64,000 nt of DNA. Origin: a virus (taxonomy: Duplodnaviria; Caudoviricetes). Below are positions 1-39,525 of the stretch, one piece after another. The DNA lies in the IMG/VR virus record IMGVR_UViG_3300042270_000651, positions 1-64,000 of that record, one strand, 5' to 3'. Position 1 is the stretch's first letter. Each line of letters starts with the position of its first letter. The position numbers and the translations under genes are program-made. The notes under the pieces are model-generated. The model was not told the origin of the DNA and did no database searches. It was given only the letters and a program-made list of their open reading frames with translations.

Positions 1-636
1 CTACTGGCTGACCCACAGAACGCGGGCGATCCACTCCACCTGCTCACGAGGCAGGGACCGATCTTCGTGAAGAGGGTTGAGGCTTTTCAACTCGACGCGC
101 TTTTCCGACAGCCGCAGCAGTTCCTTCACCATCACCTCGCCGTCGAGGGTGCGCACCACCACCCGGTCGCCACGCCGGATGGAGGCCTCGGGCGCGACCA
201 CCAGACGATCCCCGTCCCGATAGACCGGTTGCATGGAATCGCCCGACACCTCAAGGGCATATGCATGAGGGTCGGTGACATCCGGCGAGCGGATCTCATC
301 CCATCCCGCACCCACCGGCCAGCCGGCGTCATCGAAGAAACCGGCCAACCCCGCCTGCGCGAATCCGATCAGCGGAAGGGTGCGCGAAGGCGGCTGACCG
401 TGACCGATGCCTTCCACCATCGCGGTGAAGTCCGAGAACGACGTGTTGGTCGCCTGAAGGATCTTGGCGATGGATTCCGTCGACGGCCATCGCGGCTTGC
501 CTTCCCGCGTGGTGCGCTTAGACCGATTGAAGGTCGTGGAATCAAGCCCTGCCCGCCGGGCCAGTCCCGAGGCGGACAAGCCCTTGATTTCAGCGAGGCG
601 GTCGATCGCGCGCCAGATCTGCGAGTGCTTCAGCAT
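1..636 (-). CDS. HTH + S24 peptidase (CI/LexA-like) transcriptional repressor, host
   Basis: N-terminal HTH (SASGLARRAGLDSTTFNRSKR), AQAG cleavage-like site, catalytic GDSMQP and VKEL motifs. Confidence 0.9.
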   Translation of the reverse strand: MLKHSQIWRAIDRLAEIKGLSASGLARRAGLDSTTFNRSKRTTREGKPRWPSTESIAKILQATNTSFSDFTAMVEGIGHGQPPSRTLPLIGFAQAGLAGFFDDAGWPVGAGWDEIRSPDVTDPHAYALEVSGDSMQPVYRDGDRLVVAPEASIRRGDRVVVRTLDGEVMVKELLRLSEKRVELKSLNPLHEDRSLPREQVEWIARVLWVSQ

Positions 637-732
637 GGGAACATGGTCTTACAGACGGACAAATCGCGCATTAAGATTAAATTCCGCTATGCCTCTTGAC
701 GTTCTGGGCGGCGAATCCTAACACTTCCGGTT

Positions 733-747
733 GTTCTTATTTCGTTC
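733..747 (+). promoter_or_regulatory. Alphaproteobacterial LexA (SOS) box GTTC-N7-GTTC
   Basis: gttcTTATTTCgttc between a TTGACG-17-TAACAC promoter (696-724) and the ATG at 765. Confidence 0.65.
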
Positions 748-764
748 TTTCCGGGAGTTCCGCC

Positions 765-1133
765 ATGGCTCACCCCCACATCCCCCCTGTTCGCGTGCTG
801 ATCGACCGCCCCGCCGAGCTTTTTTGCTCCGCCGAGGATGCGTGGTTCTGGTACTGGCAATGCCAAATCGCCCGCGACGAGGGCGCCCGTTTCGTCGCGG
901 GCGCCGGAGTCGTCGGCCGCCCTTGCGATCCCGACGACGTATGCTGCGCCGCCTTGTCGTTGCTCCGGCGCGGCGTTCTTCAGCGCGGCCACCTCTCCAC
1001 CCTGGCGAGCTACGGTCGGGCGATGACGCCCCCCGACCCCCGCTTGCCCGATCAGGCCAACGCCCACCGCCTGTGGGAAGAGGCTCTCGACCGCATGACC
1101 ACCGTGTTGCGCGCCAAAGGAATCGTGGAATGA
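765..1133 (+). CDS. Hypothetical protein, possible regulator of the head operon
   Basis: ORF MAHPHIPP...LRAKGIVE with GGGAG RBS, divergent from the S24 repressor. Confidence 0.7.
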   Translation: MAHPHIPPVRVLIDRPAELFCSAEDAWFWYWQCQIARDEGARFVAGAGVVGRPCDPDDVCCAALSLLRRGVLQRGHLSTLASYGRAMTPPDPRLPDQANAHRLWEEALDRMTTVLRAKGIVE

Positions 1134-1525
1134 CCATCCCGGCCGTGGTCGTGTTCAGCGGCGACACCGACATTCCGTGGTTGCGCGTGTTGCGGCCCGG
1201 CTTTCGCCACTGCTTCGCCCTCATCGCGTCGGGCGACTGCTGGGTTCTGATCGACCCCTTGTCTCACTACACCGCCTTGCGGGTGGTTCAACAACCAGCG
1301 CCCTGGCAACCGGCTCCCTGGTTTCACGCGCACGGGCTCACCGCCATCGCCACGCACGCCGCCGAACCTCCCCGCCGCCTGGCCCCTTGGCGCCCCTATA
1401 CCTGTGTCGAGGCCGTGAAGCGGGCGCTTGGCCTGCGCCTCCCCTACGTTTTCACGCCCTGGCAACTGTACCGGACCCTCTCGGCCAATGGGATCGAAAC
1501 CCCACATAAAAGAAAATATTCTTGA
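1130..1525 (+). CDS. Hypothetical protein with His...TCVE motif (permuted papain-like, tentative)
   Basis: ATGA overlap with previous gene; GFRHCFA and YTCVEAVKR motifs. Confidence 0.65.
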   Translation: MTIPAVVVFSGDTDIPWLRVLRPGFRHCFALIASGDCWVLIDPLSHYTALRVVQQPAPWQPAPWFHAHGLTAIATHAAEPPRRLAPWRPYTCVEAVKRALGLRLPYVFTPWQLYRTLSANGIETPHKRKYS

Positions 1526-1550
1526 CATAGGGATTGAGATGCGTCATACC
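1522..1550 (+). promoter_or_regulatory. Sigma70-like promoter of the head operon
   Basis: TTGACA-17-CATACC preceded by an AT-rich UP-like tract. Confidence 0.6.
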
Positions 1551-1574
1551 TCCCCTTGTCAACGCCACACCTGC

Positions 1575-1604
1575 GCCCGCCGGACACCCTCCGGCGGGCT
1601 TTTT
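1575..1604 (+). terminator. Intrinsic terminator in the leader of the head operon
   Basis: GCCCGCCGGA-caccc-TCCGGCGGGC followed by TTTTT. Confidence 0.75.
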
Positions 1605-1656
1605 CGTGGCCGCAGTTCATGTCCCACCGCCCGCCCCACCAAAGGAGACCCGGCCC

Positions 1657-2292
1657 ATGGGAGGTTACTCATCCCTGCCGCCCCTCAACACTCTCGACGA
1701 TTTCGAGCAGTTGATGAACAGCGGTGGCCTGCCCGCCGGCGCCCCCAGCCAAGCTTTGCGTGACCGTTTACCCACGCCGCCACCGCCTCAACCGACGGTG
1801 TGGGTGGACAACGGCGCCGGCGAACCCGTGCCGCCGTCCTGGATGAAAAACCCCGGCCCGGACTGGTATCGCGTCGTCTTCGCCGACGGTACGGAAATGA
1901 GCGCCGCCGAATACCGCGCCTGGCGGGCCAAAAACGGCGTCTACGCACCGCCCACGGCCATCACCCCCGATGGGCGGGCCGTTTCCGACACCAAGGGCGC
2001 GCCCCCCACTCCAACGGCACCTCCGCCCTCATCGGGAACGCCGCCGTCCGCGCCTTCTCCACCGCCCTCGACGCCCACTCCGCCCCCCTCGCCCACTCCG
2101 AAGCCTCCAACATCGCCACCGCCCGCTCCAACGGCGCCTCCGCCCACACCGGAAGAGGAACGCCGCAAATCCCTGCAAACCCGAACCAGCGCCGAGGCCG
2201 CGCGCAAAAGCACCATCGCGACATCGTGGCGCGGGGTGCTCAGCCCGCCGCCGATCGTGGTCGGCCGCCGCAAGACCTTGTTGGGAGAATGA
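1657..2292 (+). CDS. Pro-rich protein preceding portal (podovirus pre-portal type)
   Basis: AAGGAG RBS; C-terminal TIATSWRGVL...RKTLLGE resembles small pre-portal proteins. Confidence 0.6.
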   Translation: MGGYSSLPPLNTLDDFEQLMNSGGLPAGAPSQALRDRLPTPPPPQPTVWVDNGAGEPVPPSWMKNPGPDWYRVVFADGTEMSAAEYRAWRAKNGVYAPPTAITPDGRAVSDTKGAPPTPTAPPPSSGTPPSAPSPPPSTPTPPPSPTPKPPTSPPPAPTAPPPTPEEERRKSLQTRTSAEAARKSTIATSWRGVLSPPPIVVGRRKTLLGE

Positions 2293-2295
2293 TCC

Positions 2296-3912
2296 ATGCC
2301 CGTCGATACCGAGGCCCTGTTGCGCCGCTACCGGGCCGCCCGGTCGCGCCGCAGCGCCTGGGAAGGACATTGGCGCGAATGCTATGACTTCACCCTGCCC
2401 AGCCGCGACGGCGCGGTGCCGGGGGGTGGAGCCGAGGGCGCGAAACGGGGCGACCGCCTGTTCGACGGCACCGCGCCGGACGCCGTGGACCAGTTGGCCG
2501 CCAGCCTGCTCGCGCAATTGACGCCGCCGTGGGCGCGCTGGTTCGGCCTGAGCGCCGGGGTGGAGATCGCCGCCACCGACCGCGACGCCATCGCGCCGGT
2601 CCTGGAAAAAACCGCCGAGATCGCGCGCGGCCACTTCGACCGCGCCAATTTCGCCGTCGAGATGCATCAAGCCTATCTGGATCTGGTGATCGCGGGCACC
2701 GCCAGCCTGTTGTTCGAGGAAGCGCCCCCTGGCAGCCCCAGCGCCTTCCGCTTCACCGCCGTTCCCCTGTCGGAACTGGTGGTGGAGGAAGGCGCATCGG
2801 GCCGCCTGGACACCACCTTCCGCCGATCGGACGCCAGCCTGCCCACCTTGCACGAACGCTTTCCCCGCGCCGACCTGCCCGACGCCCTGACCGCCCGCGC
2901 CGACGCGGACGCCGACGCCCGGTTCGCGGTGCTGGAAGCGGTCGTGCCCGAGCCGGACGGGGCCGGATTCGTCTACACCGCCTTGCTGGACCCGGAAGGC
3001 TCTCCCGGTACGTCGGACCCACTGGTGCTGGCCGAGGGCCGCTTCGCCCGCTCGCCCTTCATCACCTTCCGATGGCTGAAGGCCCCCGGCGAAGCCTATG
3101 GCCGCAGCCCGGTCATGAAGGCGCTGCCCGACATCAAGACCGCCAACAAGGTGGTGGAACTGGTGTTGAAGAACGCCAGCATCTCCGTCACCGGCATCTG
3201 GCAGGCCGATGACGACGGCGTGCTGAACCCCGCCAACATCCGGCTGGTGCCGGGGGCGATCATTCCCAAGGCGGTCGGGTCCTCGGGCCTGACGCCGCTG
3301 GAAGCGCCGGGGCGGTTCGATGTCAGCCAACTGGTGCTGGACGACCTGCGGGCGCGCATCCGTCACGCCCTGCTGGTGGACCGCCTGGGCCAGCCCGACG
3401 CCCCCACCATGACGGCGACCGAGGTGCTGGAACGGTCCGCCGAGATGGCGCGCATTCTGGGCGCCACCTACGGACGCTTGCAGTCAGAGCTTTTGACGCC
3501 GCTCATCCTGCGGGCCTTGTCCATCCTGCGCCGCCGGGGCGAAATCCCGGACTTGCGGGTGGACGGCCGCGTGGTGGACCTGACCTATCAGTCGCCGCTG
3601 GCCCGCACGCAGGCGCAATCCGACGCCCAGAACACCCTGACCTGGCTGACCTCCGTCGCCGGCCTTGGCCCCGAGGCGGCCCAGGCCGTGGACACGGTGG
3701 CGGCGGCCCGCTGGTTGGGCCGCGCCCTTGGCGTGCCCGCGGAACTCATCCGCGAGACGCCGCCCGAGGGCGCGGTTCCGTCCGCTCCTCCCGGCCCCGT
3801 GCCGGTGGGCGTGACACCCGCCGCGGCCCCGCCACCGACCGCCGGGGCCGCTCCGCCCCCGCTCGCCCCTGCCGCCGCCGCGATGCCCGGCGGCGCGGGA
3901 GGCGCGGCATGA
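2296..3912 (+). CDS. Portal / head-to-tail connector protein (T7/BPP-1-like)
   Basis: LFDGTA, GEAYGRSP, MTATEVLER and YQSPLA motifs. Confidence 0.9.
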   Translation: MPVDTEALLRRYRAARSRRSAWEGHWRECYDFTLPSRDGAVPGGGAEGAKRGDRLFDGTAPDAVDQLAASLLAQLTPPWARWFGLSAGVEIAATDRDAIAPVLEKTAEIARGHFDRANFAVEMHQAYLDLVIAGTASLLFEEAPPGSPSAFRFTAVPLSELVVEEGASGRLDTTFRRSDASLPTLHERFPRADLPDALTARADADADARFAVLEAVVPEPDGAGFVYTALLDPEGSPGTSDPLVLAEGRFARSPFITFRWLKAPGEAYGRSPVMKALPDIKTANKVVELVLKNASISVTGIWQADDDGVLNPANIRLVPGAIIPKAVGSSGLTPLEAPGRFDVSQLVLDDLRARIRHALLVDRLGQPDAPTMTATEVLERSAEMARILGATYGRLQSELLTPLILRALSILRRRGEIPDLRVDGRVVDLTYQSPLARTQAQSDAQNTLTWLTSVAGLGPEAAQAVDTVAAARWLGRALGVPAELIRETPPEGAVPSAPPGPVPVGVTPAAAPPPTAGAAPPPLAPAAAAMPGGAGGAA

Positions 3913-4196
3913 TCCCCGCCGCGCCCGAGCGCGAGGGGTGGAGCGGCCTCGAACCGGGGGCCGGGGGTGCGATCGAGGACGGTTCCGACGCGCCGGAGAA
4001 CGAGACGGGTTTCCTCTTCGCCCGTGTGTTTTCCGGCAGTGACGGCGACCGGGCGCTGCGCCACCTGCGCGCGCTGACCCTCGACCGCGCCCTCGGCCCC
4101 GAGGCCAGCCCGGAGGCCCTGCGCCACCTGGAAGGCCAACGCGCCCTTGTCCGCCACATCCTCGCCCTGGTGGTGCGGGGGCGGGCGGGCGGATAG
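3909..4196 (+). CDS. Bbp19-like small phage protein
   Basis: FARVF..DG..ALRHL...EGQRALV pattern; directly after portal. Confidence 0.7.
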   Translation: MIPAAPEREGWSGLEPGAGGAIEDGSDAPENETGFLFARVFSGSDGDRALRHLRALTLDRALGPEASPEALRHLEGQRALVRHILALVVRGRAGG

Positions 4197-4253
4197 GGGG
4201 CCTGCGGCTCTCCCCCGTCGTTCCCGAAGTTTCCCAACCGGAAGGACCCGACC

Positions 4254-4970
4254 ATGACCACTCCCGCCCTGCCCCGGCCCGCCGGGGTCAAACCCGCGAT
4301 CCCGGCGGAGTTCATCAACCCCGAAACCGGCGAGGCCGATGTCGAGGCCCTGCTCGCCGCCTTCATGGCCCTGCAACAACACACCGAAGGCGCTGTCCGT
4401 GTGCCCGGTCCCGAGGCCGACGACCAAACCCGACGCGCCTTTTTCTCGGCGCTAGGCGTCCCCGACAGCCCCGACGGCTACCAGGTCGCCGCGCCGCACG
4501 CGCTGCTTCAGGCCGACCCCGCCGTCAACAGCCGCCTCCACGCCGCCGGGTTCACGCCCGAACAGGTGCAGGTCGTTTACGATCTGGCCGCCGAACATGT
4601 CATTCCCGTGCTGGAAACCATGGCCGCCGACATGGACGGCGACCGCGAACTCGCCCTCCTGATCGATCACTTCGGCGGCGAGGAACGCTGGGCCGAGATC
4701 AGCCGTCAGCTTCAGGCCTGGGGCAAGGCCAACCTGCCCGCCGATGTGCTGTCCGCCCTGGCGGGCACGGCGGACGGCGTGCTGGCCCTGTTCCGCATGA
4801 TGCAATCCGGCGAGCCGGGCCTGGGTGGCCTGGACAAAAGCACAGGCGGCCCCACCGACGAAGACGCCGTCAAGGCGCTGATGCGCGACCCGAAATACTG
4901 GCGCGAGCGCGACCCCGCCACGGTGCGCAAGGTCGCGGAGGGCTTCAAGCGCCTCTATCCAGGGGCCTAG
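4254..4970 (+). CDS. Capsid assembly scaffold protein
   Basis: Between portal and capsid; LGVPDSPDGY motif and C-terminal DPKYW motif. Confidence 0.7.
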   Translation: MTTPALPRPAGVKPAIPAEFINPETGEADVEALLAAFMALQQHTEGAVRVPGPEADDQTRRAFFSALGVPDSPDGYQVAAPHALLQADPAVNSRLHAAGFTPEQVQVVYDLAAEHVIPVLETMAADMDGDRELALLIDHFGGEERWAEISRQLQAWGKANLPADVLSALAGTADGVLALFRMMQSGEPGLGGLDKSTGGPTDEDAVKALMRDPKYWRERDPATVRKVAEGFKRLYPGA

Positions 4971-5064
4971 GGCAAATCCCGAGCGGGCGCGATAGCCGGG
5001 CTGCCGCCCGGACCCGCTTGGGGACGATCTCCCCAAACCCCTCTTTGTTTTGTTCAGTAAGAGT

Positions 5065-5135
5065 GTGCCTTCAGCGGCGCGCAGCGCATCAACTCCCAAC
5101 GGTGGAATTGGTGTGCGCTGCGCGCGGCTGAGCAC
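5065..5135. repeat. Long imperfect inverted repeat (REP/MITE-like hairpin)
   Basis: gcgcgcagcgcatcaactcc...ggaattggtgtgcgctgcgcgc in the scaffold-capsid spacer. Confidence 0.55.
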
Positions 5136-5260
5136 CTCCTAGCCCAAGGAACCGCGGGTCTGGGTGGCCGCGCCACCCAGCGGGGGCTTGGAGGCGGAGC
5201 CTCCAAATATATCCCCCCGTCGCCTCTCTTCACCCATCACAACCCAAGGACCACGCAACC

Positions 5261-5965
5261 ATGTCCGTTCAGATCGACAAGTCCTTCGTGAAGCATTTCC
5301 AGGCCGACGTTCACCTCGCCTTTCAGCAGATGGGGTCCAAGCTGCGCAACACCGTGCGCACCAAGAACGACGTCAAAGGTTCTTCCACCGTGTTCCAGAA
5401 GGTCGGCAAGGGTACGGCCTCGACCAAGGCGCGGCACGGCAAGGTGCCGGTCATGAACCTCGACCACACGCCGGTCGAGTGCCAGCTCTACGACTACTAC
5501 GCCGGCGACTGGGTGGACCGGCTGGACGAGTTGAAAACCAACATCGACGAACGCCAGGTGCTGGTGAAGGCCGGGGCCTACGCCCTGGGCCGCAAGACCG
5601 ACGAGCTGATCATCAACGAGTTCGACGCCTCCACCAACTACGCCCAGGACGGCACCACCGGATTGACCAAGGAAAAGGTGCTGGCCGCCTTCGAAATGCT
5701 GGGCGAGGCCGACGTGCCCGACGACGGCGACCGCCATGCCGTGGTGGGCTGGAAACAGTGGTCCGAGCTGCTCGCCATCCCCGAGTTCTCCAACGCCGAT
5801 TACGTGGGCGAGGATGACCTGCCGTGGAAAGGCACCCAGGCCAAGAAGTGGCTGGGTACTTTGTGGATGCCCCATTCCGGCCTGACCGCTTCGGGCGGGG
5901 TGCGGTTTTGCTACTGGTATGACCGCAAGAAGTATCTTGACACATTCTATCGCGTCAGAAGCTAG
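5261..5965 (+). pseudogene. Podovirus-type major capsid protein, 3'-truncated by prophage insertion
   Basis: Capsid-like sequence (YAGDWVDRLDELK, GAYALGRKTD) up to CYWY at about 5920, then 14 AT-rich codons ending against the integrase stop; only 234 aa. Confidence 0.75.
5905..5925. other. Probable prophage attachment junction
   Basis: Composition shift after tgctactggtat, about 40 bp beyond the integrase 3' end; partner att site not in window. Confidence 0.55.
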
Positions 5966-7062
5966 GGTTTGTGCCCCTTACCGGGCGACCCGACGAGTTT
6001 ACTGTATTCGTACTGTGTCTCGCTGTGTGCTGCGCTGTTCTGCGCTTCCTGCGCCCTGGCCTCATCAATGCGCCGCATCTGGTGGTGCATCGTCTCGGTG
6101 ACGACGTGGGCGTAGCGCATGGTCGTCTGCAGGTTGGCATGCCCCAGAATGCGCTGCAGCACCGCGATCTCGCCGCCGTCGCGCAGCCAGCGGGTGGCGA
6201 AGGTGTGGCGCAGGTCGTGCCACCGGCAGGACACGCCGGACAGCTCCAGGGCGGGATACCAGAACCAGTGCGTGGCGACGTAGCGGCCGGTGCGGCCAGA
6301 CCGGAACAGGTGGGCGTCCCCGTCCTTGAGCATGTACCGCTCGGCGATGGCCAGCGCGCGGGCCGACAGCGGAACGACTCGGGCCTCGGCGTCCTTGGTG
6401 TCCGTCTCGAACAGGTGCACCTCGCGCCGCTTCAGGTCGACCCACCGGCAGCGCAGGTTCAGCTGCTCGCTCTTGCGCAGGCCCGTCTCGATGGCGAACG
6501 CCACCATGTCCCGGTGCTGGGGGTCACCCAGCGCCTTGAGGATGCGGGCCTCCTCGTCGTGGGTCAGGAACCGCGTAATCTCTCGGGCCCCCTGCAGCCG
6601 CTTCCACACCCGCGCGGCCTTCACCGGGTTGTTTTCGGCGGTGTCGCACCCCAGCCAAGTGAACAGGCCCGACAGGTACGTGCACTCGGCCAGCACCGTG
6701 CCGTCGGTCACCCCCGTGGCGCGGCGCTTCTCGATGAAGTCCTCGACCTCGTCGACCGTGATCTCCGACAGGTACAGCTCGCCGATGATCGGGTGCCAGT
6801 TCCGCAGCGCGCGGGTGAATGAGCGGCGCGTGTTGCGCTTGGTCTGAGCCAGTACGTACTCGGCGGCCACGTCCTTATAAAGACGAGCGCCCCGGAAAGC
6901 CCGGCGGCGCTCTGTCGCTTTCAAACAACGGTCGAGAACCTGATGAGCCTCGGCCTCTATTTCTGTCCCAGAAGATTTTCGTACAAGCCGTCCGTCGGCG
7001 TCCCGGTATCTGATCCACCAGGCTTTTGTCCCTTCCCGTCGGTAGACGCTTCCTTTTGCCAT
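5962..7062 (-). CDS. int: Tyrosine integrase
   Basis: TGLRKSE, HDLRHTFAT and LGHANLQTTMRY catalytic motifs. Confidence 0.95.
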   Translation of the reverse strand: MAKGSVYRREGTKAWWIRYRDADGRLVRKSSGTEIEAEAHQVLDRCLKATERRRAFRGARLYKDVAAEYVLAQTKRNTRRSFTRALRNWHPIIGELYLSEITVDEVEDFIEKRRATGVTDGTVLAECTYLSGLFTWLGCDTAENNPVKAARVWKRLQGAREITRFLTHDEEARILKALGDPQHRDMVAFAIETGLRKSEQLNLRCRWVDLKRREVHLFETDTKDAEARVVPLSARALAIAERYMLKDGDAHLFRSGRTGRYVATHWFWYPALELSGVSCRWHDLRHTFATRWLRDGGEIAVLQRILGHANLQTTMRYAHVVTETMHHQMRRIDEARAQEAQNSAAHSETQYEYSKLVGSPGKGHKP

Positions 7063-7370: not shown

Positions 7371-7580
7371 CTACCGGGTGCCTCTCTCGAGGCGGCGCTG
7401 ACAGTCTATGCAAGTCCGAGCGCCGGGTTTCGCCCTGCGGCGCCTTTCCGGTATCTCGTCCCCGCAAACTGAGCAGTCCAGGACCTCCTCCGTAGACTGA
7501 GCGGCCTTCTGGTGCGACTCCAGGGCCTTGCGCAGGAACAGCTCGCTGCGCTCCTGGGCGAGGTCGATGTCGTCTGCCAT
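7371..7580 (-). CDS. TraR/DksA C4 zinc-finger protein
   Basis: MADDIDLAQE...CSVCGDEIPERRR...TCIDCQ. Confidence 0.9.
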   Translation of the reverse strand: MADDIDLAQERSELFLRKALESHQKAAQSTEEVLDCSVCGDEIPERRRRAKPGARTCIDCQRRLERGTR

Positions 7581-8590
7581 CAGGCGGCCTCCGGCAGCTT
7601 GTTGAGCATCAGCGCGCTCCAGGTCTTGGGGTACTGCGCCATCAGCTGGGCCGCGATCATCTGGGCCGGCTCGCGGGTCTCCTGCTGGGCGTTCCCGGCC
7701 AGGCGCTCGGCGCACAGGCGGGCGTAGTCGTTGAGGCTGGCCGTCCAGTACCACTGCGTGTGCGCGGCCATGGTGAGCCACGCACGGGCCTGTTCGGCCG
7801 CGATGCCCTTCTCGACGGCGGCCTGATAATCCTCCAGGGCGTAGGCGTTGGCCTCGCGCAGCGCCCCGGTGGCCCAGGTCTGCGTGGCGGGGGTTACGAC
7901 ACCGTCGGAGCCCTGCTTCTTGTCCTGGGACTGCGCCCGCCACTCGTCGGGCTCCCAGAAGGTCGGGTCGTCGGTGACGTAGCGCCGGCTGACCTCGTTC
8001 TGCACGAAGCCATCCTGGTGCTTGCCCAGCTGGCGGGCCACGAAGAAGGGCACGTCGATCAGGAAGCAGGCGCTCGACAGCACAGCGCGCTCGGGGTCCT
8101 TGGCCATCCAGGCGTCGGTGATCTGGTCGGGCCGGATCAGGCGCACCCGGTCGCCCTGGGCCTCGGGCTCCTCGATGCCGTAGGCGTCGCAGGCATAGGG
8201 GAAGCTCTCCCACAGCATGTCCCGCACGCCAGCGTCCACGTCCTCGGGCAGCAGGCCCTGGCGCAGGTTGCGCACCCAGGCGTAGAGCGAGCCCTTGACC
8301 ATGTACTCGCCGGGGCTGGTCTGCAGGGTCTGGAAGCCGACCCCGCGCTTGAGCAACCAGGCCACGGCCTCGGCGTCCGACAACGCCATCTGGACCCACA
8401 TCTGCGGGTGGGCGTAGGGCGTCCAGTGGCCGTTGCGGGCCAGAAAGCCCATCAGCTTCTGATCCCGCTCCGACAGCACGGGCTCACCCGTCACGTCCGG
8501 CAGCCAGTTCGACTTCTTGGCGAAAGACACCCGCGCGCTGTTCACGACCAGCAGGTCGTCGTGCGCCGGATGAAGCAGCTGAGCCTTCAT
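7580..8590 (-). CDS. thyX: FAD-dependent thymidylate synthase
   Basis: DLLVVNSARVSF, HWTP, ARQLGKHQ...NEVSRRY and EQAR motifs; contains an internal insertion. Confidence 0.9.
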   Translation of the reverse strand: MKAQLLHPAHDDLLVVNSARVSFAKKSNWLPDVTGEPVLSERDQKLMGFLARNGHWTPYAHPQMWVQMALSDAEAVAWLLKRGVGFQTLQTSPGEYMVKGSLYAWVRNLRQGLLPEDVDAGVRDMLWESFPYACDAYGIEEPEAQGDRVRLIRPDQITDAWMAKDPERAVLSSACFLIDVPFFVARQLGKHQDGFVQNEVSRRYVTDDPTFWEPDEWRAQSQDKKQGSDGVVTPATQTWATGALREANAYALEDYQAAVEKGIAAEQARAWLTMAAHTQWYWTASLNDYARLCAERLAGNAQQETREPAQMIAAQLMAQYPKTWSALMLNKLPEAA

Positions 8591-8856
8591 GCTCCCTCCT
8601 TGTGCAATTGAGTGCAGCCCTTCTCGGGGAGGGGCTTCATGTTCTCCACGGCATCCTTCCACGCGGCCTTGAACGCGACCTTCTTGTCGTCGGCCTCGCC
8701 CCGACTCATGGTGACGTAGGTGCCGCCGTCGCCGCCGATGCAGCCGTCCCCGGTCTGGCAGTGCCAGGGGCGACGGTAGCCGCAGTAGTCGCAGGCCACC
8801 ACCTCCCCGTCCCGGACTTTGACCTCGCCGGACTTTTTCTTGATCACGATGGGCAT
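8587..8856 (-). CDS. Hypothetical Cys-containing protein
   Basis: ORF with CDYC...C...C, coupled to thyX. Confidence 0.55.
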   Translation of the reverse strand: MPIVIKKKSGEVKVRDGEVVACDYCGYRRPWHCQTGDGCIGGDGGTYVTMSRGEADDKKVAFKAAWKDAVENMKPLPEKGCTQLHKEGA

Positions 8857-8859
8857 GGC

Positions 8860-9207
8860 TCACCCCGCACGCTGAAGGGCGGTGGCCACCTTGCGGTCGG
8901 GGGCGGGCAGCCCCTCGTGCCGCGCGGCATCGCGGTCAAGCTGGATCAGGTGGCAGCCCCGGTCCATGGCATAGCGGATGACCCCGATCAGGTAGCCCGA
9001 GGTCCAGCTGGAGCGCAGCTCGTTGATCAGCCCCTCGCGGTCGTCGCTGTCGGGGACCGACACGAAGTAGCCCAGGTCGTATTCGTAGACCACCAGCAGC
9101 GGCGCCTTGCCGCCCACCTTGGTGATCGTCGCCATTATGGACAAAAACTGGCCGTCGCTTTCGGTGATGTGGTCAAGCGACAGGTCCAGACAAGTCGTAA
9201 AAGCCAT
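8860..9207 (-). CDS. Hypothetical phage protein
   Basis: MAFTTCLDLSLDHITESD with AAGGAGG RBS. Confidence 0.65.
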   Translation of the reverse strand: MAFTTCLDLSLDHITESDGQFLSIMATITKVGGKAPLLVVYEYDLGYFVSVPDSDDREGLINELRSSWTSGYLIGVIRYAMDRGCHLIQLDRDAARHEGLPAPDRKVATALQRAG

Positions 9208-17784: not shown

Positions 17785-17868
17785 TCGATCCTCCTTGATC
17801 TTGCGTGCAATTGATTTCAGGCAGGGGGCGACACCTGTGCCTCGGCCCCCACCCCTTTCGTGATCCGG

Positions 17869-18414
17869 TCAGGCGTCCAGGCTGGCCACATCTTCCGGGG
17901 TCACGCCCCGCAGCGGGAAGGTCTTGACCAGGGCCACCGGGTAGTAGCCGTCGTGACCTTCGTTCTTGGCGTAGCGGCCCTTGTCGTGCGGCGCCTTCTG
18001 GAAGCCCCGGTACACCTCGAAGGTCATCTCGTCGAGGTTCAGCACGTATGCCCACTCGCAGAACAGGCTCTCATTCACGAAGCCGGTGCCGTCCGTCATC
18101 AGGCCGATGGCGAGCTGCTGGTCCAGGTGGCCCTGGTAGCCGCGCAGCACCGAATACCAGTCCCCGCGATTGCCGATCAGCTCGTGCAGCTTGGCCAGGT
18201 CGTCCACCTGCTTCTGAGTGGGTGTCCCGTCTTCGGGCACCAGCGTCAGGGCGCGGGCCTTCTCGATCAGGCCATCCGGCCCCCACTCGTTCAGCATCTT
18301 GCGCACCTGCTCGGCCAGGTCCCGCCCAAGGCCGCCGGGGTAGCTGTCCATATGCTTGTAGGTCAGCTTGTCGGTGCCATCGACATGCACGCCATAGCTT
18401 CCGCGCGTACCCAT
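17869..18414 (-). CDS. Phage protein of MGTRG...DSYP type
   Basis: MGTRGSYG, HMDSYP and FCEWAYVLNLD motifs. Confidence 0.7.
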   Translation of the reverse strand: MGTRGSYGVHVDGTDKLTYKHMDSYPGGLGRDLAEQVRKMLNEWGPDGLIEKARALTLVPEDGTPTQKQVDDLAKLHELIGNRGDWYSVLRGYQGHLDQQLAIGLMTDGTGFVNESLFCEWAYVLNLDEMTFEVYRGFQKAPHDKGRYAKNEGHDGYYPVALVKTFPLRGVTPEDVASLDA

Positions 18415-18544
18415 GTCTTCGTCCTCCTTGACGTTTTGCAATTGATTTCAGGCAGTCCTCTGCGAAACAGGGGGAGACAGGCGTGTCTCGGGGTCCTCTG
18501 CTTCGGCGAGGGGTGGGGCCTCGGTCTTCCCCACCCGCCCCTCC

Positions 18545-18850
18545 TCACGCCAGGCCCAGGTTACGCAGGGCGTTCAGGCACTGCTTCACCTCGTCGAGCT
18601 GCTCCTGGAACAGGGAAACTTCGTCCAGCTCCAGGTCGGTGCCCTTCGTGCCCAGGCGGAAGCCGTCGCGGTCGCGCTTCAGGTAGACCAGCCGGCCCAG
18701 GGCGTCGCTGATGCCCCCGACCGTGCGCCACCCCCAGCGCGGGTTGTAGCTGGCCTCCACGCCGTAGAGCCCCAGCACCTTGACAGCGCGGATGAGTGTC
18801 TGCTCGTTCAGTTGGGGCTTGGTCGGGGTCTTGGTGGCGATGGCGTTCAT
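18545..18850 (-). CDS. Hypothetical protein
   Basis: RBS and ORF. Confidence 0.6.
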   Translation of the reverse strand: MNAIATKTPTKPQLNEQTLIRAVKVLGLYGVEASYNPRWGWRTVGGISDALGRLVYLKRDRDGFRLGTKGTDLELDEVSLFQEQLDEVKQCLNALRNLGLA

Positions 18851-39228: not shown

Positions 39229-39525
39229 TCACAGGCCCAGCTGAACCCTGCGGGCTTTCCGGGCAGCCTCAAGAGCCCGCTTCTCGGTCGGATAGCCCTG
39301 GGTGTCGATGCGCTCCCGCTTCCACTGCTGGATGCCATCCGGGGTGGTGCCGATCAGGACCGACTTGTCAGCCAGGACGTAGAACTTACTGTCACGGCCC
39401 CGGACGATCATGCCGAAGTCGCACGCGGCAACTCCGCCCCCGGCGGGCGGGGTGCGGTCGGTCAAACGCAGATAGCGGACGGTGCCGTTGAACACGGGCT
39501 TGGCGGTGAGGTTCAGATTGGCCAT
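39229..39525 (-). CDS. Hypothetical protein
   Basis: MANLNLTAK with AAGGAGG RBS. Confidence 0.55.
   Translation of the reverse strand: MANLNLTAKPVFNGTVRYLRLTDRTPPAGGGVAACDFGMIVRGRDSKFYVLADKSVLIGTTPDGIQQWKRERIDTQGYPTEKRALEAARKARRVQLGL

Follow-up and report, generated by a model that had tools for sequence, protein, structure and literature searches.

The stretch of DNA analysed here (the window) comprises the first 64 kb of the 94,208-bp IMG/VR 'provirus' record IMGVR_UViG_3300042270_000651. With high probability, positions 1-5919 of this window hold the regulatory and head half of a gene cluster derived from a podovirus of the T7-order/BPP-1-like kind, which is fixed in the chromosomes of Rhodospirillales, is likely to be an SOS-controlled gene transfer agent (GTA), and is interrupted here within its capsid gene by a prophage. 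Comparisons between genomes show the cluster to be a fixed chromosomal element and not a mobile prophage; judged from the same comparisons, the role of the family is most likely that of a GTA which packages host DNA. The preliminary description of this DNA had proposed a domesticated GTA of podovirus type. Domestication is favoured by synteny, by the ratio of nonsynonymous to synonymous substitution rates (dN/dS) and by congruence with the species tree, but the capsid gene of this particular copy is broken.

Distribution, gene content and inheritance of the cluster

A scan of IMG/VR based upon the portal protein revealed 323 relatives, many of them 'proviruses' of about 18 kb from isolate genomes, with the repressor gene at one end and a CheckV completeness of about 51%. 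The corresponding portal-based scan of species-representative genomes confirmed at least 395 relatives, of which 80 loci were kept for mapping. Those kept loci that bear a genus or family name belong mostly to the Rhodospirillales in the broad sense, and the carriers among them include Caenispirillum (91% identity), Magnetospirillum, Azospirillum, Terasakiella, Defluviicoccus, Micavibrio, Tagaea, Ferrovibrio and Roseospira. A portal homologue is present in 212 of the 301 Rhodospirillales genomes sampled, mostly in single copy, with at least 150 of the matches at E <= 2e-166. The patchy distribution and decay which the preliminary description had named as the outcome contrary to its proposal were not seen.

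The gene order was derived by mapping reference proteins onto the 80 loci and onto five fully fetched elements. In its 5' half the conserved cluster consists of the repressor gene on the minus strand, followed by genes which we designate A, B and C, those for the portal, Bbp19 and scaffold proteins, and a variable insert. The middle is made up of the genes for the capsid, an 89-aa protein, tail tube A (phrog_394), tail tube B (phrog_376) and a fibre, together with variable genes. The 3' end specifies the small terminase, a T7-type large terminase (NF033889, E 1e-133), a 114-aa protein, a SleB-type endolysin (PF07486) and a holin with three transmembrane segments (PF11351). The same order occurs in approximately 70 species, and different genera have host flanks in common; the synteny check suggested in the preliminary description thus favours domestication. 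The last conserved gene (17853-18647 in the Caenispirillum locus L168) matches PF11351 'GTA_holin_3TM' with an E-value of 3.7e-14; this family is named after the release holin of RcGTA.

No integrase or replication genes were located in the cluster copies of Caenispirillum, Defluviicoccus, Terasakiella, Micavibrio and Azospirillum, and a Pfam integrase search of five carrier genomes likewise detected no integrase inside the cluster. The nearest integrases lie 5.5-16 kb outside it in Terasakiella and Azospirillum, while Micavibrio possesses just two integrase-family genes, both more than 1 Mb away. The earlier statement that replication genes are not adjacent to the cluster also stands. The cluster is flanked by housekeeping genes of the host, those beside it in Caenispirillum and Defluviicoccus being ordinary host genes. 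A class IV aminotransferase gene adjoins the element in 17 loci (Caenispirillum, Azospirillum, Thalassospiraceae, Magnetovibrio and Terasakiella), and several additional flank genes are common to Caenispirillum and Terasakiella.

Clusters that have been divided provide an argument for domestication which was absent from the preliminary description, since they are split but intact. In Azospirillum sp. A26 the block from repressor to scaffold is found at 2.31 Mb and the capsid-tail-terminase block at 1.97-1.98 Mb of one chromosome, 334 kb apart. The split between scaffold and capsid genes recurs in Azospirillum TSH64, Magnetospirillum LM-5, M. sulfuroxidans and Paramagnetospirillum caucaseum, with all reading frames open, and the genes of the second locus show dN/dS values of 0.08-0.17 between two Azospirillum genomes. 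A phage whose capsid and portal genes were 334 kb apart would be unable to propagate, and selection on the split clusters must therefore act through the host. The lineage of the window itself, like Caenispirillum, has an undivided cluster. Chromosome 1 of Azospirillum sp. A26 (genome G007) carries tyrosine integrase genes at 2,302,567 and 1,997,039, approximately 10 kb and 16 kb from the split edges, which suggests that the 334-kb gap arose through insertion of a mobile element or through rearrangement.

Comparison of the window with Caenispirillum gave dN/dS values of 0.07 for the repressor, 0.24, 0.25 and 0.35 for A, B and C, 0.14 for the portal, 0.5 for Bbp19, 0.19 for the scaffold and 0.03 for the retained part of the capsid gene. 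All fall between 0.03 and 0.35 save that of Bbp19, and omega for the window's own branch, obtained by four-taxon distance decomposition, is 0.10-0.15 and not above that of its sisters. The dN/dS check put forward in the preliminary description is in accord with its reading, as is the check for congruence with the species tree. The portal tree clusters sequences by genus, and among the 32 genomes with both genes the patristic distances of portal and RpoB are strongly correlated (Mantel r 0.88, which none of 2000 permutations attained). The portal and RpoB trees, both of them quick single-gene trees, have 14 of 29 bipartitions in common, all of them clades at the genus to family level.

It might be argued that the cluster is the decaying relic of an ordinary temperate podophage, and that its resemblance to loci elsewhere reflects a common, host-range-limited phage family inserted at the same site. 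The cataloguing of the IMG/VR relatives as incomplete 'proviruses' would agree with this, as would the CI-type repressor, the truncated capsid gene in the window, and the cargo genes found within the cluster in some lineages, such as a GGDEF-EAL gene in Azospirillum. We consider it very improbable. Every gene tested is under purifying selection, with no added relaxation on the window branch; integrase and replication genes are lacking within or beside the cluster in five genomes; the split loci are intact across species; the element is found in most of the order, as a rule once per genome; its distances follow those of RpoB; and the DNA-binding segment of the repressor is near-invariant across the order. 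The truncation of the capsid gene, for its part, is accounted for by the abutting prophage with its integrase. Taken together, content, flanks, split loci, selection, phylogeny and repressor conservation argue against a relic prophage, against a live site-specific prophage family and against a satellite. The contiguous integrase, replication and early genes and the patchy mobility of a temperate T7-order/BPP-1-like prophage were not found. What was found is the pattern of a GTA, namely phage structural, packaging and lysis genes unaccompanied by genes for replication or integration, with vertical inheritance and purifying selection, in an arrangement which in some genomes is scattered and could not then be packaged as one unit.

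The control region and the putative late switch

The repressor possesses a Ser within a GDSM motif, a Lys within VKEL and a cleavage-type site, QAG. With a helix-turn-helix (HTH), an S24 domain, the Ser-Lys dyad and an Ala-Gly-type site all present, it is a putative autocleaving repressor of the LexA/CI S24 type, and the HTH/S24 repressor of the preliminary description is confirmed at the same place (Table 1). An alignment of 68 orthologues revealed that the HTH segment AGLDxTTFNKSKR is near-invariant, unlike the immunity regions of temperate phages, which diverge fast. A LexA-like repressor of GTA activators, RogA, has been described in Caulobacter. It is a protein of 213 aa which lacks the catalytic residues and binds GGAA-N4-TTCC, and its homologues are 'particularly enriched' in Rhodospirillales among other orders (PMC9632790). 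The repressor of the present cluster may be a member of the RogA family. Its retention of the catalytic Ser and Lys, together with an adjoining LexA-type box, would imply induction by the SOS response, unlike RogA.

This box, an exact GTTC-N7-GTTC at 733-747, lies between the -35 hexamer and the ribosome binding site (RBS) of gene A, just 5' of the ATG at 765, and corresponds to the direct-repeat LexA site of Rhodobacter and the rhizobia. Two matches occur in the 64-kb window as against 2.6 expected, which by itself is non-significant. The box gains significance because it recurs: of 60 orthologous intergenic regions, 22 contain an exact copy or its complement, as against about 0.5 that by our own estimate chance would supply. 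The SOS box claimed in the preliminary description is thus exact and recurrent in relatives, but shows no significance in the window alone. We regard 733-747 as a candidate alphaproteobacterial LexA (SOS) box.

When the regions between the repressor gene and gene A are aligned on the -35 hexamer, 59 of 61 share a layout in which an AGGAA-type motif stands 21-22 nt 5' of TTGAC; the GTTC-N7-GTTC box, or its complement, lies 3' of TTGAC. Both the window and Caenispirillum have a degenerate form of the upstream motif, TTAAGA. The AGGAA-type motifs, together with the sequence of the late promoter given below, recall the GGAA half-site of RogA, and the repressor may consequently bind both promoters. 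A second AGGA or TTCCT is often present in relatives at or just after the -35 TTGAC (equivalent to 660-700 of the window).

Genes A and B stand 5' of the leader of the late operon, the order in the window, and similarly in many relatives, being A-B, TTGACA at 1522, a hairpin with its T-run, C and portal. On the strength of this gene order A had been expected beforehand to be a regulator, standing like lambda Q directly 5' of a leader with promoter and terminator. W27, W29, G40, D58 and W104 are invariant among 59 orthologues, and an AlphaFold model based upon family alignments (predicted local distance difference test, pLDDT, 86) depicts a four-helix protein. This model was compared exhaustively with 48,161 chains using VIA-align. 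The top match was Q21 (6jnx_P; Z 5.9, root mean square deviation 3.9, 89 aa aligned) and the second-best AlpA (7xyb_G; Z 5.4), followed by sigma-factor region 4 domains, these Z values lying under the tool's safe level for a fold match (Z 8). Both named matches agree with the prior expectation. Foldseek against PDB gave nothing significant (E ~1.5), and the ESM Atlas provided a weak, independent lead to PF06530 (Phage_antitermQ; score 0.79). From the model we propose gene A as a candidate for a Q21/AlpA-like antiterminator or a sigma-region-4-like activator. The suggestion in the preliminary description that 765-1133 encodes an activator or antiterminator is in line with the two best matches, although their scores are low.

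The start of gene B overlaps the end of A by ATGA and its stop codon falls inside the TTGACA at 1522; on this arrangement B is translationally coupled to A. The preliminary description had placed two small genes before the portal. The first of these, 765-1133, stands, but the second, an open reading frame at 1177-1509, is in the wrong frame, the actual second gene being B, and gene C was missed as the third. H27, C28, C92 and E94 of B are invariant among 64 orthologues. In the AlphaFold2 (AF2) model (pLDDT 88) C92 occupies the N-terminus of the helix 92-100, and VIA-align matched the model to TseH (Z 6.6, 110 aa), YiiX (Z 5.6) and 3kw0 (Z 5.4), all three of them permuted NlpC/P60 cysteine hydrolases, the Z values again lying under the safe level. 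The ESM Atlas adds a weak lead to phage YiiX-like hydrolases. Perhaps, then, gene B specifies a circularly permuted cysteine hydrolase of the NlpC/P60 type (YiiX/TseH-like), with its His before its Cys, for which the model makes it a candidate.

The product of gene C begins with MGG and ends with TLLGE, and the stop codon precedes the portal ATG by 3 nt. It is 57.5% identical (tblastn) to the product of the Caenispirillum gene, and in most relatives the gene in the same place specifies a protein which starts with MGGFF, is Pro-rich and ends with SLLGE. Searches of Pfam, PHROGs and NCBIfam found no match for C.

In the leader of the late operon the -35 hexamer TTGACA (1522-1527) is perfect and the -10 region poor. 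The promoter which the preliminary description placed at 1522-1550 is accordingly upheld by its -35 element, which is conserved in relatives, but not by a consensus promoter scan, which made no call. The late promoter reads TTGACATAGGGA. The intrinsic terminator claimed at 1575-1604 is present, with a hairpin of 10 bp, 9 of them GC, followed by TTTTT. Many relatives have the same succession of elements, first a TTGACA promoter, then a conserved box with the consensus CAACGCCACANNTGCGYC, next a GC-rich hairpin followed by a T-run, and finally the RBS and gene C; the stem sequences of the hairpin differ between lineages. A folding-based scan recovered a terminator-like hairpin in 31 of 64 leaders, as opposed to 25 of 128 coding control windows; it superseded an earlier strict scan, which had found the leader hairpin in 20 of 73 relatives. 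The box between promoter and hairpin is a candidate for the site at which the putative antiterminator would be loaded or pausing would take place. In some lineages the box (1557-1578 in the window) is partly palindromic, as in locus L131 (GGCACACGTGTGCC).

We propose that the switch would operate as follows. DNA damage would activate RecA, the S24 repressor would cleave itself and host LexA would leave the GTTC-N7-GTTC box, upon which the TTGAC promoter at 696 would drive the A-B operon. The A protein, with its resemblance to Q21, AlpA and BrrG, would load onto RNA polymerase at the late promoter (TTGACA 1522), and the loaded polymerase would pass the leader terminator at 1575-1604 into gene C and the portal, Bbp19, scaffold, capsid, tail, terminase and lysis genes. 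Particles would then be assembled, filled by the terminase and released by means of the holin and endolysin.

A number of points weigh against this reading of the cluster as an SOS-controlled GTA. The structural Z values of A (5.4-5.9) and B (5.4-6.6) stay beneath the level considered safe, and neither protein has a sequence-family match, A in Pfam, PHROGs, NCBIfam or a PDB sequence-profile search, and B in Pfam, PHROGs or NCBIfam, with nothing significant for B by Foldseek against PDB. The late promoter has a poor -10 element. A leader terminator could be discerned in no more than about half of the relatives, the folding-based scan finding none in some groups, for example the Azospirillum brasilense clade. 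Nothing resembling the internal core or ejection proteins of T7 was recognised in the cluster. Deep branches of the portal and RpoB trees conflict, some with support of at least 90 in these quick trees, so that occasional transfer is possible. The rest of this genome's cluster, that is, its tail, terminase and lysis half, would lie outside the record. Lastly, we infer the GTA function from genomics.

A domesticated particle or lysis system could also have been selected for a role other than transfer, such as altruistic lysis under SOS control with release of DNA or public goods, a head-based device for killing or exclusion, or defence against related phages. An S24 repressor, an antiterminator candidate and lysis genes together amount to the control logic of Pseudomonas AlpR/AlpA, AlpA being the second-best match of A, and the holin-endolysin cassette has been retained complete. 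We nevertheless think such a role rather unlikely, since the portal, scaffold, capsid, both terminase subunits and the tail genes are under purifying selection, in the split genomes as well, and would be superfluous for a pure lysis module. Moreover, all domesticated systems known to us which combine a head with a terminase are GTAs or PBSX-like particles that package DNA.

The interrupted capsid gene and the inserted prophage

The portal, Bbp19, scaffold and capsid genes named in the preliminary description were all four identified by Pfam, but the capsid gene is cut short and the prophage inserted into it had been overlooked. Over residues 1-219, which end in GVRFCYWY (nt 5919), the capsid protein is 98.6% identical to that of Caenispirillum salinarum. 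There follow 15 unrelated codons, and 51 C-terminal residues are lost relative to the full-length protein. The last run matching an uninterrupted capsid gene is TGCTACTGGTA (5909-5919). In blastn comparisons with six close relatives the homology stops at 5918-5919 in five and at 5881, 38 nt earlier, in the most distant. A tblastn search of the whole 94-kb record located neither the capsid C-terminus nor tail or terminase genes. This genome consequently presents no complete functional set of the cluster's genes, its capsid gene being cut at nt 5919.

An integrase gene (5962-7062, minus strand) directly abuts the capsid reading frame, and is followed by a ThyX-like gene (7580-8863) and the rest of a large prophage. 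In a map of GC content by codon position, plus-strand genes are confined to the first 6 kb, and from 5962 to the end of the record nearly all genes lie on the minus strand. The truncation of the capsid gene is attributed to this adjoining prophage. The simplest reading of the sequence is that the capsid gene was entered, after codon 219 of its 270, by an integrating prophage of approximately 88 kb, and that the remaining half of the cluster would be found past the right end of the record. While the prophage is in place this copy, as predicted from its reading frame, cannot make a complete capsid protein; its precise excision would be needed to restore the gene. Since the window branch, with its omega of 0.10-0.15, shows no decay, the insertion has to be recent in comparison with that branch.

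The integrase of the inserted prophage has no relative in more than 200 related loci or in a pattern scan of IMG/VR. This sole integrase of the window is assigned to a separate, inserted prophage, and nothing related to it stands beside any other copy of the cluster. In a search for an attachment site, repeats of the 5800-6100 junction were sought across the 94-kb record; the only candidate was a 15-nt repeat at 5892 and 39444. It was judged to be due to chance, because the copy at 39444 lies in a minus-strand gene and no capsid sequence follows it.

A small element which brings capsid, portal and terminase genes of its own as well as a CI-like repressor, and which adjoins a large prophage in this record, might also call to mind a phage satellite, in the manner of the capsid-forming phage-inducible chromosomal islands (PICIs), with the adjoining 88-kb prophage perhaps serving as helper. 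We rate this as the least probable of the explanations considered, and scarcely credible. The cluster family has no integrase or replication genes and possesses its own tail and lysis genes, while the satellites known to us carry an integrase and a replication module, and the capsid-forming PICIs lack tails. The big prophage is absent from all other genomes examined, as are relatives of its integrase from the related loci, and the two elements are neighbours through insertion into the capsid gene and not through partnership.

Returning to the GTA, we tentatively advance a fuller proposal, to which we would give a little less than an even chance. The cluster would be a new, independently evolved GTA of the Rhodospirillales, derived from a podovirus of the T7/BPP-1 type, and the SOS response would turn it on by way of an autocleaving S24 repressor, a LexA box and a Q21-like antiterminator. 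A temperate phage would use its capsid gene as attachment site, and excision upon DNA damage would rebuild that gene, amounting either to a reversible switch in favour of phage over GTA or to sabotage by the phage.

Relation to known systems and further features

Among the known systems closest to the cluster are the alphaproteobacterial GTAs of the RcGTA and CcGTA type (Rhodogtaviriformidae). Both there and here, head, tail, packaging and lysis genes are chromosomal, vertically inherited, unaccompanied by integration or replication genes and at times dispersed. A repressor of about 210 aa with an HTH and an S24-like domain lies 5' of a small activator operon, and the late genes are partly under antitermination, which in the present case is our deduction. 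The holin belongs to the family that bears the RcGTA name, and the GGAA half-sites of the RogA operator (PMC9632790) may be compared with the AGGAA motif conserved in the control regions here. In contrast, the structural genes are unrelated, RcGTA and CcGTA being built on an HK97-type siphovirus module whereas the present cluster combines a portal, scaffold and terminase of the T7 type with a BPP-1-type capsid and a short tail. Homologues of GafA or GafYZ are absent here, and the repressor keeps the catalytic Ser and Lys that RogA is without. Particle production and transfer have been proven for RcGTA and CcGTA, whereas the present cluster is known from its genes. The control of the Caulobacter GTA by GafYZ involves antitermination (PMC11150451), and what the preliminary description stated about RogA and GafYZ is correct (PMC9632790; PMC11150451).

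In BaGTA of Bartonella, a Q21-like processive antiterminator, BrrG, has been described (bioRxiv 10.1101/2024.11.20.624540). The parallel consists of a small protein resembling Q21 and of a promoter with an attenuating leader or terminator 5' of a domesticated-phage capsid operon (bioRxiv 10.1101/2024.11.20.624540). BaGTA differs in its phage ancestry and in its run-off replication module, and antitermination by A is suggested here by a match with a Z of 5.9.

In Pseudomonas aeruginosa the LexA-like S24 repressor AlpR is cleaved on DNA damage and frees the Q-type antiterminator AlpA (PDB 7xyb) for alpBCDE. Such a factor lets RNA polymerase pass a terminator into lysis or particle genes, and PrtR-controlled pyocins and lambdoid CI/Q control are comparable. 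These systems have in common with the cluster the logic of an S24 repressor coupled to a Q-type antiterminator, to which the match between A and AlpA adds. Unlike them, A has no detectable sequence similarity to AlpA or Q21, and the operon here codes for a whole set of capsid, tail and terminase proteins.

With BPP-1 and other podoviruses of the T7 order the cluster shares homologous proteins (PF12236, PF25181, PF05396, PF19821, phrog_394, phrog_376 and NF033889) and the order of its head genes. It differs from them in having no genes for RNA or DNA polymerase, replication, integration or a recognisable internal core, in its size of about 17 kb as compared with at least 40 kb, and in being fixed in the chromosome and co-diverging with the host.

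Full-text searches of the literature revealed no paper in which this cluster, or any GTA derived from a podovirus, is described. Particles of Azospirillum containing '10-kb DNA' have been ascribed to a GTA, which the authors tied to an RcGTA-like region and not to the present cluster (PMC3899980). What is new in the window is the prophage within the capsid gene, an interrupted copy without decay, and the structural leads for A and B. To our knowledge, all well-studied GTAs of alphaproteobacteria (the RcGTA-like elements and BaGTA) stem from long-tailed phages. RcGTA-like clusters are poorly represented in Rhodospirillales. If the proposal is true, an order-wide, vertically inherited particle system from a short-tailed phage would constitute another independent domestication, and with it an independent case for asking why bacteria maintain such particles. 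The convergence would be informative, as the Caulobacter GTA, BaGTA and the Pseudomonas Alp system also pair a LexA-like repressor with antitermination. The carriers include the tractable Azospirillum, Magnetospirillum and Caenispirillum, and the predicted switch is simple. The copy in the window, with a large prophage within its capsid gene, is a natural experiment.

The features of the left end of the window are collected in Table 1, the gene identities in 1-5965 having been assigned using Pfam and PHROGs. The portal is 91% identical to that of Caenispirillum salinarum, and the position of the Bbp19 gene is kept in nearly all relatives.

Table 1. Coordinates of the cluster genes, control elements and adjoining integrase at the left end of the window
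Feature	Coordinates	Strand	Basis
CI/LexA-type repressor, 211 aa	1-636	-	PF00717 (Peptidase_S24) E 3.5e-26; HTH_26 (Cro/C1-type HTH); phrog_4
Divergent control region	637-764		-35 TTGAC 696-700; GTTC-N7-GTTC 733-747; RBS GGGAG 753-757
Gene A, 122 aa, all-helical	765-1133	+	59 orthologues; AF2 model
Gene B, 131 aa	1130-1525	+	64 orthologues; AF2 model
Late-operon leader	1522-1604	+	-35 TTGACA 1522-1527; box TTGTCAACGCCACACCTGCGCC 1557-1578; hairpin 1575-1599; T-run 1600-1604
Gene C, 211 aa, Pro-rich middle	1657-2292	+	Position and sequence match to Caenispirillum gene
Portal (T7 gp8-type head-to-tail connector), 538 aa, intact	2296-3912	+	PF12236 E 2e-142, profile 2-489 of 489
Bbp19-like small head protein, 95 aa	3909-4196	+	PF25181 E 1.5e-16
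T7 gp9-type scaffold, 238 aa	4254-4970	+	PF05396 E 6.6e-16
Major capsid protein, residues 1-219 of 270	5261-5919 (frame open to stop at 5965)	+	PF19821 profile 1-244 of 293
Tyrosine integrase of inserted prophage, outside cluster	5962-7062	-	PF00589 E 8.5e-26; phrog_1 E 1e-61

Several variations on the conserved arrangement were observed among the relatives. The junction between scaffold and capsid genes is a hotspot for insertion. In Azospirillum (locus L010, 6056-8410) it is occupied by a gene for a 784-aa sensor protein with GGDEF and EAL domains, and seven species of the A. brasilense group (L117, L118, L122-L124, L126 and L128) exhibit the same scaffold-capsid spacing, in which about 5.9 kb separate the capsid gene from the portal start. 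Other genera have inserts of 0.2-7 kb at this junction, and it is at the same place that the Azospirillum and Magnetospirillum clusters are split. The Caenispirillum copy carries a gene for a class I S-adenosylmethionine-dependent methyltransferase amid its tail and fibre genes (L004, 12120-12893, and the equivalent in L168), which was not found in the regions of Azospirillum, Defluviicoccus, Terasakiella and Micavibrio compared.

Two metagenome-assembled genomes labelled as Bacteroidota and Solirubrobacterales (L096 and L108) contain Magnetospirillum-like copies nested in the Magnetospirillum clade; most likely these are mis-binned contigs and do not reflect transfer across phyla. In a clade of uncultured Alphaproteobacteria with small genomes (approximately 1.6 Mb), the terminase and lysis block is situated between B and the portal gene and not after the tail genes (loci L134, L139, L142, L144, L145, L147, L149-L151, L154 and L161). 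To judge from the gene order, this relocation is a transposition of the block within the cluster.

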